Source: Candidatus Limnocylindria bacterium
Lineage (GTDB): Bacteria > Chloroflexota > Limnocylindria > QHBO01
Length of the DNA: 64,000 nucleotides
Reading direction: 5' to 3'
Assembly (NCBI GenBank): GCA_038322875.1
Contig: JBBQGI010000002.1
Location: forward strand, 4,348 to 68,347
The notes beneath the pieces are model-generated. The model saw nothing but the letters and a program-made list of their open reading frames with translations. It made no database searches and was not told where the DNA came from. Below are positions 171 to 55,154 of the stretch, in pieces; within the stretch, counting starts at the first letter, position 1, and each line of letters begins with the position of its first letter. The position numbers and the translations under genes were made by a program.

Positions 171-839
171 CTAGAAGAGGGTCATCTGTTCGGCCTCGTC
201 GGCCTCAGCCGTCGGGGCCGGTGGCACTGGCTCGACCAGGAACGCCTGGACCGATTCCGTCCGCTCGGCGTCGATCGCCTGGCGGGCGGCCAGCAGCGCG
301 GCCGGCAGGCCACGCATATCTGCGAAGAGAGTCTCCCGCAGCGACGACTGATGCAGCGCCGCAGCAGGATGGTACATCGGGAAAACGAACCGCCCGCCCG
401 ATCGGCGCAGTCGGCCATGCACCTCGCCGATGCGGGCATCGGGGAGGTATCGCCGCAGCGAGTGGCGACCGAGTGTGACGATCACGGCCGGGTCGAGCGC
501 CGCTTCCTGGCGGTCGAGGTACGGCCGGCAGGCGGTGATCTCACCCGGCTCCGGGTCGCGGTTGCCCGGTGGCCGGCACTTCACGACGTTGGCGACGAAG
601 ACCTGTTCGCGCGCCCAGCCGATCGAGGTCAGGAGCTCGTCGAGGAGCTGCCCGGCCGGCCCCACGAACGGGCGCCCGGTGGCGTCCTCGCGCTGCCCCG
701 GCCCCTCCCCCACCAGCAGCACATCGCTGATCGGGTTCCCCTCGCCGGGGACGGTCCGCGTGCGGCCGGCATGCAATGGACAGCGCGTACAGGTGCTGAC
801 CTCCGCCGCGACCGCGCTGAGGAGCGCCTCGGCCCCCAT
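171..839 (-). CDS. uracil-DNA glycosylase, family 4
   Basis: GEGPG and CRPPGNR motifs; Fe-S cysteines CTRCPL. Confidence 0.85.
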
Positions 840-844
840 CGGCG

Positions 845-3487
845 TCAGGACTCTTCGCTGACGCCTGCCTTGGCCATGTGCCGCTCCATTGCCGCGCGGC
901 GGCTCAGGTTCACGCGGCCCATGCGGTCGATCTCGGTCACGACCACCATCAGCTCATCGCCGACGGCGACCACGTCCTCGACCTGGTTGACCCGGAAGTC
1001 GGCGAGCTGGCTGATGTGCACCAGCCCCTCCTTGCCCGGCATGATCTCGACGAAGGCGCCGAAGTTCATGATGCGGGTCACCTTGCCGAGGTACTCCTTG
1101 CCGACCTCGACATCCTTGGTCAGGCCCTCGATCCAGGCGATCGCCTTCTTGGCGCCCTCCACCGAGACCGACGCGATCTGGATCGTGCCGTCGTCCTCGA
1201 CGTTGATCTGAGTGCCGGTCTCCGCCACGATCTGGCGAATCACCTTGCCGCCCGAGCCGATCACGTCCCGGATCTTGTCGATGGGGATCTTGATGGTGGT
1301 GATCCGGGGCGCATACGGCGACAGCTCGCTGCGGCTGACGCTGATCACCGCGGTCATCTTGTCCAGGATGAAGAGGCGCGCCACGCGTGCCTGCTCCAGG
1401 GCGTCACGCATCACCTCCATCGGGATGCCGCCGACCTTGATGTCCATCTGCAGCGCGGTCACCCCTTCTGCGGTGCCGGCCACCTTGAAGTCCATGTCGC
1501 CGTAGGCGTCCTCCTTGCCGCTGATATCGGTCAGCACGGCATGGCGCCCGGTGGCGGGATCGGAGATGAGGCCCATCGCGGCTCCCGCGACCGGTGCCTT
1601 GATCGGGACGCCGGCGTCCATCAGGGCCAGGGACGAGCCGCAGGTGCTGGCCATGGAGGTCGAGCCGTTGCTGCTGACCACCTCGCTCACCACGCGGATC
1701 GCGTACGGGAACTCATCGGCGGAGGGCAGCACCGGCAGCAGGGCCCGCTCGGCAAGCGCACCGTGGCCGATCTCCCGCCGGCCCGGGCCACGCATCGGGC
1801 GTGCCTCGCCGACGGAGTAGGGCGGGAAGTTGTAGTGGTGCATGTAGCGCTTCTCGGTCTCCGGGGAGATCGTGTCGAGGCGCTGCACGTCCGACCCCGG
1901 GCCCAGCGTGGCGATCGAGAGCGCCTGCGTCTGGCCGCGCGTGAAGAGGCCCGAGCCGTGGGTGCGGGGCAGGACCCCCACCTCGACGCTGATCGGCCGG
2001 ATGGTGGTCGTGTCGCGCCCGTCGATGCGGATGTTCTCCGAGAGCACCAGCTCTCGCGAGGTCGCCTTGGTGAGGACGTCCATCAGGGCGGAGCCGATGC
2101 CGTGCTGGCGCCGGATCTCCTCCATCGAGTCGCCCTGGCCGGCGCGGTTGTAGTCGGTCCGCGCCTTGCGGATCTCCGTCGCGATGTCGCTCCGGATCTT
2201 CTCGAGCCGCTCCGGCAGCCCGGCGGTCAGGTCGATGAAGAGGTCCGCGGTCGCCTCAGCGTCGGGCATCGCGCGGTGCGCGGCAGCATGGTCACGTCCG
2301 AAGACGAAGCGCACCAGGTCGCCGAGCTTGTAGCTACCGGCATCCGGGTAGAGCTGGTAGGCGAGCTCGAGGGTGTCATACACCGCACTCGGCTTCCAGC
2401 CGGCGTCGGTGGGCATATGGCGCAGGACGAACGGCAGGTCGAAGCCGGTGTTGTGGGCGACGACCGGGGTGTCCCCGGCCCACGCGGCGAAATTCGTCAG
2501 CACCTCGGATGCCGGTGGCGCCTTGTCCACGTCGGCGTCGCCCAGGCCATGGATCTGATGCCCGACGATCGAGCGGCCGGGATTGACCAGCGACTCGAAG
2601 CGGTCGACCACCTTGCCACCCTTCACGCGGAGCGCCGCGACGTCGACGATGTAGCCGTTTTCGGGCTTCATGCTGGTCGTCTCGAGGTCCAGGACCACGA
2701 ACTCGGCGCTCTCATCGGTGAGCGCCTTGGCGAGCTTGACGATCGAATCGGCCTTCGGTCCCAGGAACGGGAGCTTCTTGGCCTTGCCGGCGGTCGCCAC
2801 CAGCTTCTCCTGCAGATCGATGCTGTGCTGCAGCTCGGCGTGGGCGTAGGCGATGGCATCGGCCATCACCGATTCGGGCAGGATCTTCGCACCGGCCTCG
2901 ACCATCATCACCGCTTCGCGGGTGCCCGCCACGACGAGGTCGAGGGAGCTGCCGGCGAGCTGGGTGTAGGTCGGGTTGGTGACGAACGCGCCATCGATGT
3001 AGCCGACCCGGACGGCACCGATGGGGCCCATGAACGGGATGCTGCTGATCGACAGCGCCGCGGAGGCGCCATTGATGGCGAGGATGTCCGGGTCATTCTC
3101 CTGGTCGGTCGAGAGCACGGTCAGAACGATCTGCACGTCCTGCTTGTAGCCCTTCGGGAAGAGGGGGCGGATCGGCCGGTCGGTGAGGCGCATCGCCAGG
3201 ATCGCGTTCTCCGACGGGCGCGACTCGCGCTTGATGAAGCCGCCGGGGATCTTGCCCGCGGCGTACATGCGCTCCTCGAAATCCACCGTCATGGGAAAGA
3301 AGTCGATCCCCTCGCGCGGCTCGGCGGAGACCGCCGTCGCCAGCAGCACCGTGTCGCCGTAGCGCACCAGCACTGCACCATCGGCCTGCTCGGCGAGCTT
3401 GCCCGCCTCGAGCGAGAAGGGCTGGGCGCCAATTTCGGCCTCTACTTTGATAGCCACGTATTCCTCCAGATGTCTTGGTTCTGCCAT
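845..3487 (-). CDS. pnp: polyribonucleotide nucleotidyltransferase (PNPase) with an inserted DnaQ-like DEDDh exonuclease domain
   Basis: 880 aa. N-terminal RNase PH1 core ([13 protein letters not shown]), second RNase PH core, KH and S1 domains all present. About 160 extra residues (aa ~262-420) carry Exo I (LDLETTS), Exo II (AHNTGFD) and Exo III ([14 protein letters not shown]) motifs. Alternative GTG start at 3457 gives a more typical N-terminal length. Confidence 0.9.
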
Positions 3488-3565
3488 GCGGCCCGGCGCT
3501 CGGCCCGCACACGGACCTCGGCTTCACCGAGGTGGCGGGCGGCGGCCTTTGCAGGCGCAGATGGC

Positions 3566-3621
3566 TGTTGGGTCCGGCCTGAAGACCTGGCCGGATCGGT
3601 GCGACCCCGAGCCGATCGGCT
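3566..3621 (-). promoter_or_regulatory. two stem-loops in the rpsO-pnp intergenic leader (TCCGGCC..GGCCGGA and perfect palindrome GAGCCGATCGGCTC)
   Basis: Inverted repeats read from sequence; position corresponds to the RNase III-processed autoregulatory leader of pnp in other bacteria. Confidence 0.4.
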
Positions 3622-3650
3622 CCCGGGTCGTCTGCACGACGTGTGCGTGG

Positions 3651-3932
3651 TTAGCGGCGCAGTCCCAGTCGACCGATCACCGCGCGGTAGCGATCCACGT
3701 CATTTCGGACGAGGTAGGCCAGCAGCCTTCGGCGCTGACCGACGAGCTTGAGCAGCCCGCGACGCGAGTGGTTGTCGTTCTGGTAGGTGCGCAGGTGCTC
3801 CGTCAGCGACTTGATCCGCTCGGTAAGAAGCGCGATCTGCACCTCGGGGGAGCCGGTATCGCCATCGTGCGTGGCGTAGTCGTCGATGATGGCGCTCTTC
3901 GTGTCTCCGGCGAGCGGCACGTATTCCTCCAC
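3651..3932 (-). CDS. rpsO: 30S ribosomal protein S15
   Basis: Conserved S15 sequence; GTG start preceded by GGAGG. Confidence 0.9.
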
Positions 3933-3998: not shown

Positions 3999-4943
3999 TC
4001 AGCCCACTCCGAGCACGTCACGGCCCTGTGATTCGTCGCGGCGCATCTGCTGGACGAGGGCGCTGGCGTCGTCGAAGCGCTGCTCATCGCGCAGCCGGGC
4101 GACGAGCTCGACGCCGAGCTCCGATCCGTACAGGTCGCCATCGAAGTCGAGCAGGTGAACCTCCACCAGGACCGCTCCACCAGCGTGGAAGGTCGGACGC
4201 GTGCCGATGCTGACCAGCGACGGATGTGCCGGCCCGACCTGGGGGTCGGCATGGGTCACGCGGCCGGCATAGATGCCGAGTGGCGGCATGACGGGGGTGT
4301 AGGCGAAGCGCAGGTTCGCGGTCGGGAATCCCATCTCACGGCCGCGACGATCACCGGGAACCACGGTTCCCTCCAGGTAGGGGGCCACCCCCAATCGGAG
4401 CGCGACATCGAGCTCGGCGGCCGCGATCGCGTCACGCACTCGGGTCGAGGAGGCGACCTCCCCATCGACCTGCACCGGGTCGACCACAGTGACGGAGAAC
4501 CCCTGATCGGCTCCTAGCTGCTGCACCCGTTCGACCGTGCCGCGCCGGTCGCGACCGAAGGCGCTGCCGCGACCCATGGCCAGGCCGCGCAGGCCGATCG
4601 CCGGGGAGAGCCCCGCCAGGAAGGCATCTGCCGTCAGCCAGCGCAGCGACTCGTCGAAGCGCACCGGGAGCGCGTGATCAATGCCGGCCGCCTGGATCCG
4701 TGCCAGGTTGACCGCCAGTGGAGCCAGGCGGGATACCTGCGTGCCGTGTCGCAGCAGCTCGTCGGGGTGCGGGTCGAAGACCAATGCCACGCTGCGGGCG
4801 CCAAGCTGAGCGGCGGTCACCCGGGTCGCTTCCAGCAGGGCGCGGTGGCCAACATGCACGCCATCGAAGACTCCGATGGTGACGACCGCCGGTCCGATCG
4901 ACGGCAGCTCCGATAGCCCCTGGGCACGTCCATCTTCGGTCAC
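3999..4943 (-). CDS. ribF: bifunctional riboflavin kinase / FMN adenylyltransferase
   Basis: VVTIGVFDGVHVGH N-terminal nucleotidyltransferase motif plus C-terminal flavokinase domain; start overlaps truB stop. Confidence 0.9.
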   Translation of the reverse strand: MTEDGRAQGLSELPSIGPAVVTIGVFDGVHVGHRALLEATRVTAAQLGARSVALVFDPHPDELLRHGTQVSRLAPLAVNLARIQAAGIDHALPVRFDESLRWLTADAFLAGLSPAIGLRGLAMGRGSAFGRDRRGTVERVQQLGADQGFSVTVVDPVQVDGEVASSTRVRDAIAAAELDVALRLGVAPYLEGTVVPGDRRGREMGFPTANLRFAYTPVMPPLGIYAGRVTHADPQVGPAHPSLVSIGTRPTFHAGGAVLVEVHLLDFDGDLYGSELGVELVARLRDEQRFDDASALVQQMRRDESQGRDVLGVG

Positions 4944-5821
4944 GTCCCACCTGCGATCACCGTGCGCGGCTCGAGCAGCCCGTCACGCAGCAGGCCGATG
5001 CCCAGCAGTGCACCGTCGGCAAAGACCGCCTGGCGCCCACCTCCGCGCTCTCCGCGCATCATGACCGCCGAGCCATGCAGGAAGCGGCCGGCGGCCTCGG
5101 CGTCGAGGTGGAGCTGAGGCAGGTTCAGCAACGGCGCCACGGGGAGCACTGCGTCGTCCAGGTGGCCGGCCTCGGCCAGCCACTCGAGCTGGTCCGGCCC
5201 GATCGCCTCGGATGCCTGCAATCCCGCCGCCTCGGTTCGGCGCAGGGCATGGAGATGGCCGCCGCAGCCAAGGCGCTCCCCCAGGTCGCGCGCGATCGAG
5301 CGAATGTAGGTCCCCGCACCGCATCGGATGTCGCAGGTCAAGTCGAGCCAGCCGTCGCCGGACTCCGTGCCCAGCAGGTCGATCGCGTGCACCGTCACCG
5401 GGCGAGCAGGTACGTCGATGGGGCTGCCGGCGCGTGCGGCTCGATGCGCCACGGCACCGCCCATCTTCCGTGCAGAGAAGGCGGGCGGTCGCTGGTCATA
5501 GGTCCCGACGAAGAACGCCACCGCGGACAGGATTGCGGGCAGGTCGGGCGGGGACGAGCCCACCTCCAGCGGTCCCTGCGCATCATCGGTGGCTGAGCGA
5601 AGCCCCAGGCGGATCACGGCCTCGTAGCGCTTCGGTCCCCCGGTCAGGTCATCGCTGAAGCGCGTGGCCGCTCCGACGAGGATCGGCAGCACGCCCGAGG
5701 CCAGCGGATCGAGCGTGCCGGCATGACCAATGCGACGCATGCCGGTCAGGCGGCGAACCAGATCGACCATGTCGTGCGAGGTCGGCCCGATCGGCTTGTC
5801 GAGGTTAACGACCCCGAGCAT
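4940..5821 (-). CDS. truB: tRNA pseudouridine(55) synthase
   Basis: LDKPIGPTSHDMV and HAGTLDPLASGVL catalytic motif; ORF start trimmed to internal Met (M23). Confidence 0.85.
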   Translation of the reverse strand: MLGVVNLDKPIGPTSHDMVDLVRRLTGMRRIGHAGTLDPLASGVLPILVGAATRFSDDLTGGPKRYEAVIRLGLRSATDDAQGPLEVGSSPPDLPAILSAVAFFVGTYDQRPPAFSARKMGGAVAHRAARAGSPIDVPARPVTVHAIDLLGTESGDGWLDLTCDIRCGAGTYIRSIARDLGERLGCGGHLHALRRTEAAGLQASEAIGPDQLEWLAEAGHLDDAVLPVAPLLNLPQLHLDAEAAGRFLHGSAVMMRGERGGGRQAVFADGALLGIGLLRDGLLEPRTVIAGGT

Positions 5822-6782
5822 CGCCGCGGGCCAGCTCGCGCTGGGCCTCTGCGAGGACCAAGCCGCGAGCCGCTTCGATGGATCCATTCACCGTGCAGCC
5901 CGCGGCTCGGGCATGGCCGCCGCCGCCAAAGGCCGAGGTGATGGCGACCGCGTCGGCCCGGGCGCTGGTCCGGACACTGACCCGCGTCGCACCGGGACCG
6001 ACCTCCTTGAAGAGGATCGTCACGTCCGCGTGCCGCGTCGACCCCAGGAGGTCGACGAATCCCTCCGAGGCTGTTGGCTGCTCACCGGTCGCGGCGAGCA
6101 TCGCCAGCGTCATCGAGGCGAAGACGATCCGTCCCTCAGCCTCTTGTCCGATGCCGGCCAGCATCTGGCCCCATAGCGCCAGCGTGCTGAAGGGCTTGTC
6201 GGCGTAGACCGCGCGATTGATGGCGGCCAGCGGCGCGCCGGCGTCGAGGAGCTCCGTGGCGACGCGGAGGGTTCGGGCGGTGGTGTTCGGATGAGCGAAG
6301 GTATGCGTGTCCTGCACGATGCCGGCCATCAATGCCGTGGCCAGCTCCACGTCGAGCGGCACGCCCAGCTCGGGCAGCAGCAGCGCCACCAGCTCGCAGG
6401 TGGCCGCGGCCTGCGGATCGATCCACACCGCCACGCCGTAGCCGGGATTGCTGATGTGATGGTCGATGTTCACGATCCGCGCGCGAGCGAACCAGTCCGC
6501 CTGCTCGGTGACGACCGAGCCGATCCGGCTCAGCTCCCCCGCATCGACGACCACGGCCACGTCGGGCTCGAGTGCCGGCGCTCGCACCACCCGGTCGACG
6601 CGCGGCAGGAACGATAGAAAGGGAGGCGGCGGGTCGACGCTCACGACCTCGGTCTGCTTGCCGAGACGCTCGGCCGCAACGGTGATGGCGATCGCCGCCC
6701 CCAGGGTGTCCCCGTCCGGATTTTCGTGGCAGAAGGCGGTGATCCGCTCGGCCCCGCGCAGGACCTCGGCGACGTCGAGCAT
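5805..6782 (-). CDS. nrnA: DHH/DHHA1 phosphoesterase, NrnA-like nanoRNase / pAp phosphatase
   Basis: HENPDGDTLGAA DHH motif, DHHA1 GGGH C-terminus; same operon position as Bacillus nrnA-like genes. Confidence 0.75.
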   Translation of the reverse strand: MLDVAEVLRGAERITAFCHENPDGDTLGAAIAITVAAERLGKQTEVVSVDPPPPFLSFLPRVDRVVRAPALEPDVAVVVDAGELSRIGSVVTEQADWFARARIVNIDHHISNPGYGVAVWIDPQAAATCELVALLLPELGVPLDVELATALMAGIVQDTHTFAHPNTTARTLRVATELLDAGAPLAAINRAVYADKPFSTLALWGQMLAGIGQEAEGRIVFASMTLAMLAATGEQPTASEGFVDLLGSTRHADVTILFKEVGPGATRVSVRTSARADAVAITSAFGGGGHARAAGCTVNGSIEAARGLVLAEAQRELARGDARGR

Positions 6783-7160
6783 CTAGCTCTCCCCCGCCTC
6801 GTCGTCGCTCGTGCGGCGCTCACTGGCCTGCAGCTCATTGATGATCTGCAGCACGCGGTCGCCGGATTCGATCGAATCGTCCTCGCGAATCGTGAGGTCG
6901 GGAACGTGGCGCAGGCTGAGTCGTTCGCCGAGCTTGCGCCGCAGCCACGGGGTGGCGACCCTCAGGGCATCCATCGTCTTCGTGCGCTCCACCTCGCTGC
7001 CGAGGACGCTGACCCAGACGCGGGCATGGCCAAGGTCGCGAGCCGTCTCGACGCGCGTAATCGTCGCAAAGCCGAGCCGCGGGTCCTTCATCTCGCGCTG
7101 CAGCAGATCCATCAGCTCCTGGCGGATCTGGCTGTCGAGGCGATCGGTCCGCTGGCTCAT
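6783..7160 (-). CDS. rbfA: ribosome-binding factor A
   Basis: Conserved RbfA sequence, downstream of infB. Confidence 0.9.
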   Translation of the reverse strand: MSQRTDRLDSQIRQELMDLLQREMKDPRLGFATITRVETARDLGHARVWVSVLGSEVERTKTMDALRVATPWLRRKLGERLSLRHVPDLTIREDDSIESGDRVLQIINELQASERRTSDDEAGES

Positions 7161-52361: not shown

Positions 52362-52391
52362 TTGATAGGACGTGAGCGCTGGCTCCGTCAA
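52362..52391 (-). promoter_or_regulatory. putative sigma70-type promoter of the ileS T-box leader (TTGACG-N18-TATCAA)
   Basis: Hexamers read on minus strand upstream of leader; spacing 18 nt. Confidence 0.35.
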
Positions 52392-52446
52392 CGCTGTTCT
52401 TCGGTTGCGCGGATCGTCGCAGCGCGACGCCCGGCTTGTCAATCGG

Positions 52447-53598
52447 TCAGGCCAGAATGGTCCGCGTCAGCATCGCCAGGCCGGCGATGGCACTGGCAAT
52501 CACCAGGCCGCTGAGTCGTGGATAGAAGGTGCGCGCCATGAGCGCACCGATCGCCCCCAGCGGACCCACCAGGGCAAGCCCCACGAGCAACAGCCGCGTT
52601 TCGGCGCTGGGGAGGACCGGTCGGCCGGTGATGGCGACAGCGAGCCATGCGATCGCGGCACCGATCAGCGGCAGGGCAACCGGCAGGGCGGCCGCGACGC
52701 TCGCCGGTCCTGGCACGGCAAGCCAGCCAGGGCGCCGCCACTGGGCGCGCCCGCGCTGACGCGCGATCCGGGTAGATGGCCGTTCGGCGGGGAGAGCGAC
52801 TGCTGTTTGTTCCTCCATCCCGACGACCACCGGCTGTGGCTCGGCCACGACGCCGCCGGCGGCCGCTACCGTGCCTGCGGCGGCGGCCTGAACCGCGGTC
52901 CGTTCGGCGGCCAGGCGCTGTTCGATAAGGGTCCGCTCAATGCCGGTCAGGACGCGCGGAGCGATCGCTGGAGGGGGCGCAGGGGGTGGCGTCGGTTCGA
53001 CGGGTGGCGTCGGCCCAGGCAGCGCGAGGGCGGTGCCGCCCATGCTTCGTCGAGTCGCGATCTGGTCGAGCCGCTCCTGGAGGCGGACCGCGCTGGTCAA
53101 GGCGGCCAGCAGGTCATGTTCTACCCGGGCGGCGATCGCCAGCCGACCGCGATCGGTGGGGACGAGGATCAAGCCTGGCGATCCCGAGAGGCGGATCAGC
53201 TCGATCGGCTCGTCGCCGCGCAGGACGGCGGGGCCCACCGACCAGCCGAGAGCGCCGAAGCGCGGATGGAGCGCAGCTGCATGCGCTCCCCGCACCACCA
53301 CCCGGGTCACCGGCCCGCGAATCAGCCGGTAGCGGCGCTCACCGCCGAGCCAGCGCAGCTTCAGCGCGCCCGGCTCGACCTGCAGCCGATACGACGAGAC
53401 GAGGGCGGCCAAGTATGCGCCGGCCGATGCCGCCAGTCCCCCGATCGCCAGCAGGGAGATGCCCGCCGGGCCGCCGATCAACAGTCCGCCGGCGACCGAG
53501 CCGGCCGAGATGAGCAGGAATACGGCGGGCGCCGCGAAGAGTCGGACCCGATCGCGGGCAAGCCGGATGAGGGTGATTGGGGTCGTCAGCTCGGTCAT
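52447..53598 (-). CDS. hypothetical polytopic membrane protein with internal PH-like soluble domain and Pro-rich linker
   Basis: TM helices at both ends, PTPPVEPTPPPAPPPA linker. Confidence 0.45.
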   Translation of the reverse strand: MTELTTPITLIRLARDRVRLFAAPAVFLLISAGSVAGGLLIGGPAGISLLAIGGLAASAGAYLAALVSSYRLQVEPGALKLRWLGGERRYRLIRGPVTRVVVRGAHAAALHPRFGALGWSVGPAVLRGDEPIELIRLSGSPGLILVPTDRGRLAIAARVEHDLLAALTSAVRLQERLDQIATRRSMGGTALALPGPTPPVEPTPPPAPPPAIAPRVLTGIERTLIEQRLAAERTAVQAAAAGTVAAAGGVVAEPQPVVVGMEEQTAVALPAERPSTRIARQRGRAQWRRPGWLAVPGPASVAAALPVALPLIGAAIAWLAVAITGRPVLPSAETRLLLVGLALVGPLGAIGALMARTFYPRLSGLVIASAIAGLAMLTRTILA

Positions 53599-53601
53599 TG
53601 G

Positions 53602-55104
53602 TCAGACCTTCTCGGTGACGCGGTACTCCAGGTAGCGCCCGGTGAGCAGGCGGGTCTGCGCGTCGAGTGCGGGGAGATTGCTGAAGAAGATACCCACGAA
53701 GGGAAGCCCGGTCCAGCCAACGTAGACCAGCATCCGGCGGAACCGTCCCCAGTCGGCCGGCATCGGGGGCACGATCCGATGTTCCACCCAGATCAGGACA
53801 ACCAGGGCGATGAGGGCGATCGAGAGCATGCTCGATGCGAAGACCGGCAGGTTCTGCCCGAGCGTCGTCCGCGCGAAAGCCGGGTTGATGATGAGCGGCA
53901 CCGTCGCGCCGAAGATCACCACGAACGGTGCAATCGCCCAGTTGATGTGCTCACCGAACAGGTACAGGATCCGCCAGACGCGCGACACGACCGAGATCTC
54001 GCGGTGCGCCAGCGCGTTCTGGATGACATATGGGAGATCGGTGACCCCCCAGGCCCAGCGTCGTGCCTGCAGGTACTGGCTGGCGAGCGAGCGCCAGTAG
54101 GTCTTGGCACGTACAGCGTCGCCGTAGATCGGAATGAAGAGCGGGACGGCCCGGAACCGATCGCCATAGGTGAAGTAGCTCTTCCAGTAGAAGCGGCTGT
54201 CCTCGGGGATCGCGTCGGTTGCCCAGTAGCCGACCTCGTGGACGAGATGGAGCGTGGTCGAGTAGCTGCTGAAGCTCTTCAGCGTCTCGGGCAGCACGCT
54301 GCGCCACATCTGCAGCTGCGTCAGCACGGCCGCGAAGAGCCGCAGCAGCAGCGGCGCCTGCCAGACGTTGTTGTGGAAATACGGCACCGGCTGATAGAGC
54401 TGGGTCTCGCGATTCGGGTCGGTGACGTGCACCCAGGTCAGGTAGTTGAAGTACTCCGGGTGAACTCGGTAGTCGGCATCCAGGTCGGTGACCAGCACCC
54501 GCGTCGGGTCCATCCCCCGCTCTCGCACCAGCAGCCGGTAGAGCCAGCGTCCCCCGAACGCCATGGCGCTGCTCTTGCCCACCACGATCCCCGGCTCGAG
54601 CGGATCGAGGATGTGGACGAAGTCGGCGAAGGCGGGACCGAACTCGTCGCGCAGAGTTGCCACGTTGGCGATTCCACTCTCATCGGTCTCTCGGGTGATG
54701 ATCGCGCAGATCTTGCGATCAGCCGGCCACGCGGCCTCGGCCAATGCCCGGACCGTGTGCCGCAGCGTTTCCAGGGGCTCGGTGTAGGTCGGGATCAAGG
54801 CGAGGTGGGTGTACCCCTCCCAGGACGGCAGGGTGGGATCTTCGAGCGATTCGAGCTGTTGGCGCCAGTCGGTGGCCAGAACCTGCCGGATCCGCCGGTA
54901 GGCGACGATCACCGCCCCGGAGAACCAGAGGGCGCGACAGAGCCAGTAGAAATCGAAGCTCAGCACGAAATAGGCGACCAGCCAGGGATAGCTGAAGCTG
55001 AGCCAGATCGGCCCGATGATCACGGCCCAACTGACCGTTCCCGGCACCATCTCGAGCAGGCGCTGCAGCCACAGATAGCGGTCCTGCGTCGGCTGCTCTG
55101 ACAT
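53602..55104 (-). CDS. integral membrane protein, putative family-2-like glycosyltransferase
   Basis: Multiple TM helices flanking a cytoplasmic domain with DLDADY (DxD-like) motif; assignment tentative. Confidence 0.4.
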   Translation of the reverse strand: MSEQPTQDRYLWLQRLLEMVPGTVSWAVIIGPIWLSFSYPWLVAYFVLSFDFYWLCRALWFSGAVIVAYRRIRQVLATDWRQQLESLEDPTLPSWEGYTHLALIPTYTEPLETLRHTVRALAEAAWPADRKICAIITRETDESGIANVATLRDEFGPAFADFVHILDPLEPGIVVGKSSAMAFGGRWLYRLLVRERGMDPTRVLVTDLDADYRVHPEYFNYLTWVHVTDPNRETQLYQPVPYFHNNVWQAPLLLRLFAAVLTQLQMWRSVLPETLKSFSSYSTTLHLVHEVGYWATDAIPEDSRFYWKSYFTYGDRFRAVPLFIPIYGDAVRAKTYWRSLASQYLQARRWAWGVTDLPYVIQNALAHREISVVSRVWRILYLFGEHINWAIAPFVVIFGATVPLIINPAFARTTLGQNLPVFASSMLSIALIALVVLIWVEHRIVPPMPADWGRFRRMLVYVGWTGLPFVGIFFSNLPALDAQTRLLTGRYLEYRVTEKV

Positions 55105-55154
55105 CTTCCCCTCGTCCGGCTCCCCGCCGCTCTTCACGGCCCATGGAGCGGTCG

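Follow-up and report, generated by a model that had tools for sequence, protein, structure and literature searches.

The pnp gene of a Candidatus Limnocylindria bacterium (Chloroflexota) encodes a polynucleotide phosphorylase (PNPase) in which a DnaQ-like DEDDh 3'-5' exonuclease domain is nested inside the helical domain. The gene lies in a 64,000-nucleotide stretch of DNA, here called the window (assembly GCA_038322875.1, contig JBBQGI010000002.1, positions 4,348 to 68,347 of the forward strand), and all coordinates below are those of the window. We propose, at a probability of roughly 50%, that the pnp product would function as a bifunctional 3'-5' exonuclease, with an intact PNPase, a hydrolytic DEDDh site, and RNA as its most probable substrate. 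PNPase is among the most studied enzymes of RNA decay, and its five modules are regarded as a universal plan, shared by bacteria and mitochondria alike. Both component families are well known, and what is provisionally new is the nesting of a DEDDh domain in the PNPase helical domain. An earlier note, written from the DNA alone, had described an 880-residue pnp product with all standard modules and an extra domain carrying three DEDD motifs at 2228-2704. Both descriptions are borne out, and the extra domain corresponds exactly to residues 262-420.

The pnp product is read in a single frame, with neither a stop codon nor a frameshift in the open reading frame listing. The gene and its modules are the following.

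845..3487, minus strand: pnp open reading frame, 880 residues, PNPase with embedded DEDDh domain, stop codon TGA at 847-845 (open reading frame list, Pfam, NCBIfam)
2828..3445, minus strand: PH1 module, residues ~15-220, RNase_PH and RNase_PH_C (Pfam, alignment to PDB 5yjj)
2705..2827, minus strand: N-terminal part of the helical domain, residues 221-261, predicted helices 205-233 and 246-255 (AlphaFold2, alignment to 5yjj)
2228..2704, minus strand: DnaQ-like DEDDh 3'-5' exonuclease insert, residues 262-420 (D267/E269, D350, H404/D409)
2063..2227, minus strand: C-terminal part of the helical domain, residues 421-475, predicted helices 424-441, 448-462 and 466-484 (AlphaFold2, alignment)
1343..2062, minus strand: PH2 catalytic module, residues 476-715 (Pfam, 5yjj alignment, orthologue alignment)
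890..1342, minus strand: RNA-binding KH (residues ~716-790) and S1 (residues ~791-866) domains (Pfam)

Pfam identifies two RNase_PH and two RNase_PH_C domains, KH_1, and S1 in the product, with RNase_T placed between the PH halves. The PNPase model TIGR03591 of NCBIfam matches with 966 bits, in two stretches on either side of the insert, where the curated PNPase cutoffs are 525 and 471 bits (TIGR03591 / NF008805). A phmmer comparison with the solved Staphylococcus epidermidis PNPase 5yjj gives 731 bits. The helical domain model PF03726 was undetected by Pfam in the window protein and is recorded for some orthologues; the domain itself is recognized from its AlphaFold2 helices. The PH2 residues R570, R571, H575, S609-T610-S611, D660, D666, and K668 align with 5yjj and are invariant in an alignment of 60 orthologues. 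They supply the phosphate-binding S-T/S-S element, the metal-binding Asp pair with its Lys, and the RR-x-x-x-H motif. We take these residues to be the counterparts of the numbered active-site residues of Escherichia coli PNPase, and judged by them the phosphorolytic site is intact.

The inserted domain is matched by PF00929 (RNase_T) over residues 264-417 and profile positions 1-164 of 164, with an E-value of 6.6e-22 and 79 bits. The gathering score of this family is 24 bits, and the match is far beyond chance. This is the full-length result of a search that the earlier note had proposed. The Exo I motif is VVLDLETTS (residues 264-272), which contains D267 and E269. The Exo II motif spans residues 342-354 and contains D350, and Exo III is HRAMPD (residues 404-409), in which H404 and D409 form the H-x4-D pattern of the DEDDh type. 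The three catalytic motifs stand in canonical order, and all five residues are present. The insert has the RNase H-like alpha/beta fold of the epsilon type. Its GC content equals that of the flanks, and there is no discontinuity in GC or skew across it. The insert is apparently active as an exonuclease, and both chemistries, phosphorolytic and hydrolytic, appear to be retained in one protein.

No variation is seen at D267, E269, D350, H404, or D409, either among 133 full-length orthologues or in the 60-sequence alignment, which covers three clades. T270, T271, G309/Q311/H313/G314, D371/T372, and R405/A406 are also invariant in those alignments; H345 is nearly so, and N346 differs in a few members. 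A distant full-length relative is P0129, from Candidatus Limnocylindrus sp. Its identity to the window protein is 65% for PH1 and 74% for PH2 but falls to 43% for the insert and to 30-34% for the helices on either side. The ratio of nonsynonymous to synonymous substitution rates (dN/dS) was calculated by the Nei-Gojobori method for the window against 73 loci. Because dN/dS is 0.18 in the insert and 0.16 in each PH core, purifying selection on the insert is about as strong as it is on the catalytic cores, and the catalytic pentad does not vary. The KH/S1 region gives 0.19, and the helical segments give 0.39-0.43. One orthologue, P0097, contains a 19-residue tandem duplication (APTAADVLPKFSTWIGDSP, twice) between Exo I and Exo II, which is either an assembly quirk or a real variant.

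The position of the insert is also precise. In the 5yjj alignment, residues 18-260 of the window protein correspond to residues 23-265 of the chain and residues 467-865 to residues 311-707, so that 206 residues stand in place of 45. The net gain of ~160 is the size of the exonuclease domain. The AlphaFold2 model of the full-length monomer has a mean predicted local distance difference test (pLDDT) score of 69.7 and a predicted template modelling score of 0.66, with the channel loops and S1 poorly predicted; for the insert and the helical segments pLDDT is 80-94. The model runs from helices 205-233 and 246-255 to the exonuclease domain, from its beta strand at 262-270 through its helix at 406-421, and then to helices 424-441, 448-462, and 466-484. 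The helical domain is thus modelled as intact and cleanly split after its second helix; the earlier note, too, had the insertion splitting this domain. Between the last exonuclease helix and the linker helix that follows there is almost no break, only a conserved L-P kink (424-425) with the invariant R427, and this junction suggests that the exonuclease domain is attached in a defined rather than a floppy way. A Foldseek search of the PDB matched only PNPases, at 30-40% identity, none of which has extra residues at the insertion position.

NCBIfam ranks the PRK07883 DEDD exonuclease family highest for the insert (138 bits), followed by DinG, PolC, and epsilon; the Orn and RNase T families are absent from the 25 best matches listed. 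In a phmmer search of PDB sequences, the insert matched the PolC exonuclease 2p1j with 76 bits, and the matches comprise PolC, DinG, Cas2-DEDDh, DnaQ/epsilon, and ExoX; RNase T and Orn gave no match to the single insert sequence at E<1e-3. A profile of the insert family scores 125 bits with PolC, 110 with DinG, 82 with Cas2-DEDDh, 79 with DnaQ, 68 with epsilon, and 50 with ExoX. The same profile scores 34-43 bits with RNase T and at most 26 bits, over a partial match, with Orn. In both its sequence and its fold, the insert groups with the proofreading-type exonucleases PolC, DinG, and epsilon, and the nearest characterised relative is DinG of Bacillus subtilis. Membership in the Orn or RNase T families was rejected by phmmer, by the profile scores, and by fold comparison, and the analogy to these two enzymes drawn in the earlier note finds no support. 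The closest non-PNPase relatives examined with Pfam are a 179-residue stand-alone exonuclease, multi-exonuclease proteins, DinG-type helicases, and PolC. In PolC the same exonuclease domain is itself nested in a PHP domain, which gives a precedent for this subfamily being inserted as a module. Three relatives (P0123, P0125, and P0128) have an unusual architecture of two or three tandem RNase_T domains, some fused to GIY-YIG and UVR or to BRCT.

The architecture is conserved across the Limnocylindria sampled. In the databases, the 120 top-ranking homologues of the window protein have 860-915 residues and 81-93% identity to it, and in every one PF00929 accompanies the PNPase domains. Their sources are numerous independent assemblies from JGI, ENA, and NCBI, whose submitters name Candidatus Limnocylindria or Chloroflexota. 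With P0129 as the query, a further 120 homologues were listed, 70-100% identical to it and all with PF00929, including a third clade labelled Limnocylindrales. All 240 homologues listed thus share the architecture. Among species-representative genomes, 199 stretches are related to the insert; the best 80 are 72-95% identical, and 73 of these 80 hold an intact gene with both parts. An exhaustive search of 1.84 billion cluster representatives with the insert recovered the full-length PNPase P0129 and several fragments with the PNPase-plus-insert architecture. The carriers span three Limnocylindria clades, down to 60% overall identity and the 43% seen in the insert. The insert search also gave 22,835 weaker matches, not all of which were screened for independent PNPase fusions, and restriction of the architecture to Limnocylindria is provisional. 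All carrier records are metagenome-assembled genomes or metagenome contigs, with no cultured member among these Limnocylindria records. Because databases label these proteins either as "polyribonucleotide nucleotidyltransferase" or, in JGI, as "DNA polymerase III epsilon subunit family exonuclease", the architecture is recorded but, as far as we found, not noticed.

Two records at first suggest exceptions. In a long-read metagenome contig (L083), pnp at 4286-6872 is broken into two overlapping open reading frames, a 249-residue PH1 and a 623-residue exo-PH2-KH-S1 protein. A naturally split PNPase (P0122) was rejected here. RNase J, ribF, and rbfA/DHH are likewise broken or fused in this contig, which therefore points to indel errors. 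The 711-residue Limnocylindrus protein P0275, a candidate for a PNPase lacking the insert, proved to be truncated at its N-terminus with the insert present. A recent horizontal insertion was rejected as well, given the smooth GC and skew and the presence of the insert in three diverged clades. Ten contigs with a Limnocylindria-type pnp (L003, L017, L024, L031, L045, L047, L059, L064, L074, and L077; insert 73-86% identical) carry the bin names Methylomirabilota, Steroidobacteraceae, Zixiibacteriota, Dormiibacterota, and Solirubrobacterales. In all likelihood the contigs were placed in the wrong bin or wrongly labelled, and the named taxa do not themselves carry the gene.

The gene neighbourhood of pnp is one of translation and RNA metabolism. 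The cluster is the standard one and reads nusA-infB-(rbfA)-DHH/DHHA1-truB-ribF-rpsO-pnp. Three neighbours of pnp are the following.

3651..3932, minus strand: rpsO, ribosomal protein S15, directly upstream of pnp (open reading frame list, Pfam)
5805..6782, minus strand: DHH/DHHA1 gene for an NrnA-like nanoRNase/phosphoesterase, in the pnp cluster (Pfam)
171..839, minus strand: uracil-DNA glycosylase (UDG) superfamily gene, starting 5 nucleotides after the pnp stop codon (open reading frame list, Pfam)

rpsO precedes pnp in 70 of 70 related loci and forms with it the canonical rpsO-pnp pair. The 163-nucleotide spacer between them (3488-3650, minus strand) has a GC-rich hairpin just 3' of rpsO. 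Taken whole, the spacer shows no more stable folding than its shuffled controls (z-score -1.55) and has no Rfam match, which gives no evidence of a regulatory RNA or of an E. coli-like pnp leader in the spacer. The NrnA-like gene is found in the related loci that are long enough, including the two examined from the other two clades. Its open reading frame overlaps that of truB (4940-5887) by 83 nucleotides, and the start codon of one or the other was probably placed too far upstream. Since the UDG gene begins so close to the pnp stop codon, the two are probably co-transcribed, and they adjoin in 65 of 67 loci of the window's clade. In the other two Limnocylindria clades the gene order is pnp-asd-UDG-RNase J-ftsK. 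Because asd separates the two genes there, their adjacency is best read from gene order as housekeeping synteny with loss of asd, not as a dedicated pnp-udg unit.

The large open reading frames of the window that were scanned with Pfam are housekeeping genes, such as SMC, RecG, PriA, IleRS, Ffh, Dxr, and RseP. No RNase R/II, Orn, or RNase T was found among the large window open reading frames scanned with Pfam. A 909-residue open reading frame at 52372-55101 (plus strand) has no Pfam match and overlaps the opposite-strand frames 52447-53598 and 53602-55137; the sequence being 68% GC, this may be a spurious antisense frame.

In solved PNPases, the torus face away from S1/KH is occupied by the helical domain, which forms part of a pore that is a second route to the active site, according to Nurmohamed et al. 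2009 (PMC2723993) and a review (PMC6181284). The Limnocylindria enzyme would thus be a ring-forming phosphorolytic PNPase that captures RNA through KH/S1 on one face, with each protomer carrying a metal-dependent hydrolytic DEDDh domain nested in its helical linker. The insert would be found next to the pore that leads to the PH2 active site, on the side of the ring away from RNA entry. Because the linker lines this side pore in solved PNPases, a trimer would present three hydrolytic sites adjoining three phosphorolytic sites. The DEDDh sites would remove nucleotides from single-stranded 3' ends without a need for phosphate. They would most probably act on RNA, as fragments or tails, that leaves the phosphorolytic site or that this site is unable to finish, including under phosphate limitation. 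RNA is the preferred candidate because the insert stands in an RNA setting, made up of the host protein, the RNA-binding domains that it carries, and the operon, and because the sugar specificity of DEDDh enzymes is generally lax. Hydrolysis by the insert, the choice of RNA as main substrate, and any transfer between the sites are our inferences. A more specific version of the proposal, which we regard as possible but doubtful, is that 3' ends exiting PH2, or limit oligonucleotides, are handed through the pore to the DEDDh site, making the enzyme a covalent phosphorolytic and hydrolytic machine.

Several observations weigh against a bifunctional RNA exonuclease. The enzymes closest to the insert, PolC, DinG, epsilon, and ExoX, are proofreading or repair exonucleases directed at DNA. 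B. subtilis DinG prefers single-stranded DNA and cuts single-stranded RNA only with Mn2+, according to PMC12525004. In addition, PMC2723993 and PMC6181284 consider the helical-domain pore a path for nucleoside diphosphate and phosphate, not RNA, and direct channelling between the PH2 and DEDDh sites is therefore speculative.

The first of these points favours a different function, in which the insert is a hydrolytic single-stranded DNA 3'-5' exonuclease that processes 3' ends in repair or recombination. We consider this unlikely, and yet a serious rival. DNA-repair roles have been reported for Bacillus and mycobacterial PNPases. The best matches of the insert are DNA enzymes (PRK07883, DinG, and PolC; in the PDB, PolC > DinG > Cas2-DEDDh > DnaQ/epsilon > ExoX), the close non-PNPase relatives include the GIY-YIG/UVR or BRCT fusions and the DinG-type helicases, and a UDG gene follows pnp at 5 nucleotides. 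However, that adjacency is housekeeping synteny, and the pnp-UDG operon is weakened as a repair link by the intervening asd and by the conservation of the whole block. The operon context is RNA and translation, and the host is an otherwise unmodified RNA-binding PNPase. DEDDh sugar specificity offers little discrimination, and PMC12525004 describes DinG degrading RNA in hybrids too. A nanoRNA finisher was the idea that the earlier note put first; here the DEDDh domain would hydrolyse specifically the 2-5 nucleotide limit products beyond the reach of PNPase, in the manner of Orn or REXO2. PNPase does leave short oligonucleotides, and human mitochondria clear these with the DEDDh enzyme REXO2, as PMC7261184 reports; the active-site pore would also be close to the insert, on the same face of the ring. 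Against such a role, the insert falls outside the Orn and RNase T families, and the NrnA-like DHH/DHHA1 gene conserved in the same operon makes it less necessary. NrnA-like DHH/DHHA1 proteins are the usual nanoRNases of non-proteobacterial lineages, and Orn and RNase T are homodimers in which the partner subunit helps to build the substrate site. The nanoRNA role is thus improbable and unsupported, while the anatomy given in the earlier note was right.

Two other explanations are much weaker. The insert could be a catalytically silent module that serves as a structural, regulatory, or protein/RNA-binding appendage, and inactive DEDD-fold domains are known, with Exuperantia and Maelstrom among the fold matches. 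This is very unlikely, as the five catalytic residues and the T270/T271, HG, and DT motifs are invariant in more than 130 sequences, with H345 nearly so, and they stay fixed where identity over the remainder of the domain falls to 43%. The fusion could also be an artefact of a frameshift, a chimeric assembly, or a gene-calling error that joins separate genes, which the earlier note had named as a danger, and some database entries are indeed split or truncated (P0122, P0126, and P0226). The insert is in frame between both halves of one PNPase, however, and the identical architecture occurs in hundreds of independent assemblies. The comparative data refute an artefact for practical purposes. Of the readings weighed, the bifunctional exonuclease has the best support.

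Canonical PNPases (E. coli Pnp, Streptomyces antibioticus GPSI, Caulobacter crescentus, and S. epidermidis 5yjj) have the same PH1-helical-PH2-KH-S1 order but lack the ~160-residue DEDDh insert in the helical domain, which is found in none of the solved PNPases. The closest sequence and fold relatives of the insert, the exonuclease domains of PolC, DinG, and DnaQ-epsilon (PDB 2p1j, 9qpc, 8zef/9ii8, and 1j53), form part of a DNA polymerase or a helicase and have DNA as their main substrate, whereas the host of the insert is an RNA phosphorylase. Other organisms pair phosphorolysis and hydrolysis by separate enzymes, with PNPase alongside RNase II/R, Orn, or REXO2. The pnp product is also similar to the eukaryotic and archaeal exosome, in which a PH-like ring is combined with the hydrolytic 3'-5' exonucleases Rrp6 (DEDDy) and Rrp44. 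In the eukaryotic exosome the ring is inactive, the nucleases are separate, non-covalent subunits, and Rrp6 is DEDDy rather than DEDDh. In contrast, the Limnocylindria ring looks active, and its DEDDh nuclease is covalently embedded. Orn/REXO2 and RNase T have DEDDh chemistry in common with the insert, and REXO2 partners PNPase in clearing short RNAs (PMC7261184). The Cas2-DEDDh trimmer-integrase (PDB 8fy9) is likewise, according to PMC10284694, a natural fusion in which a member of this DEDDh subfamily serves to trim 3' ends; unlike the nested PNPase insert, its DEDDh domain is joined to an end of Cas2, and its substrates are DNA prespacers. Targeted full-text searches of open-access text found no prior description of a PNPase with an embedded DEDDh domain. 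The earlier suggestion that the fusion may be undescribed stands provisionally within that open-access literature and the solved structures.

A specialist in RNA decay would be surprised by the DEDDh-PNPase architecture, for which we infer function and substrate. All Limnocylindria records found being metagenome-assembled genomes or metagenome contigs, its biology is reachable only through heterologous expression, for which the sequence is sufficient, and the protein would offer a compact bifunctional nuclease for structural and biochemical study. A hydrolytic site nested in PNPase across a whole lineage would be a natural experiment in coupling both 3'-5' decay chemistries. It bears on the role of the PNPase helical domain and pore, and might reveal what becomes of limit oligonucleotides and how cells cope with phosphate limitation. 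If 3' ends or limit oligonucleotides are in fact handed from PH2 to the DEDDh site, the enzyme would be the bacterial equivalent, in one polypeptide, of the exosome ring and its partner Rrp6 or Rrp44, and the oligotrophic Limnocylindria would not depend on phosphate supply for RNA decay.

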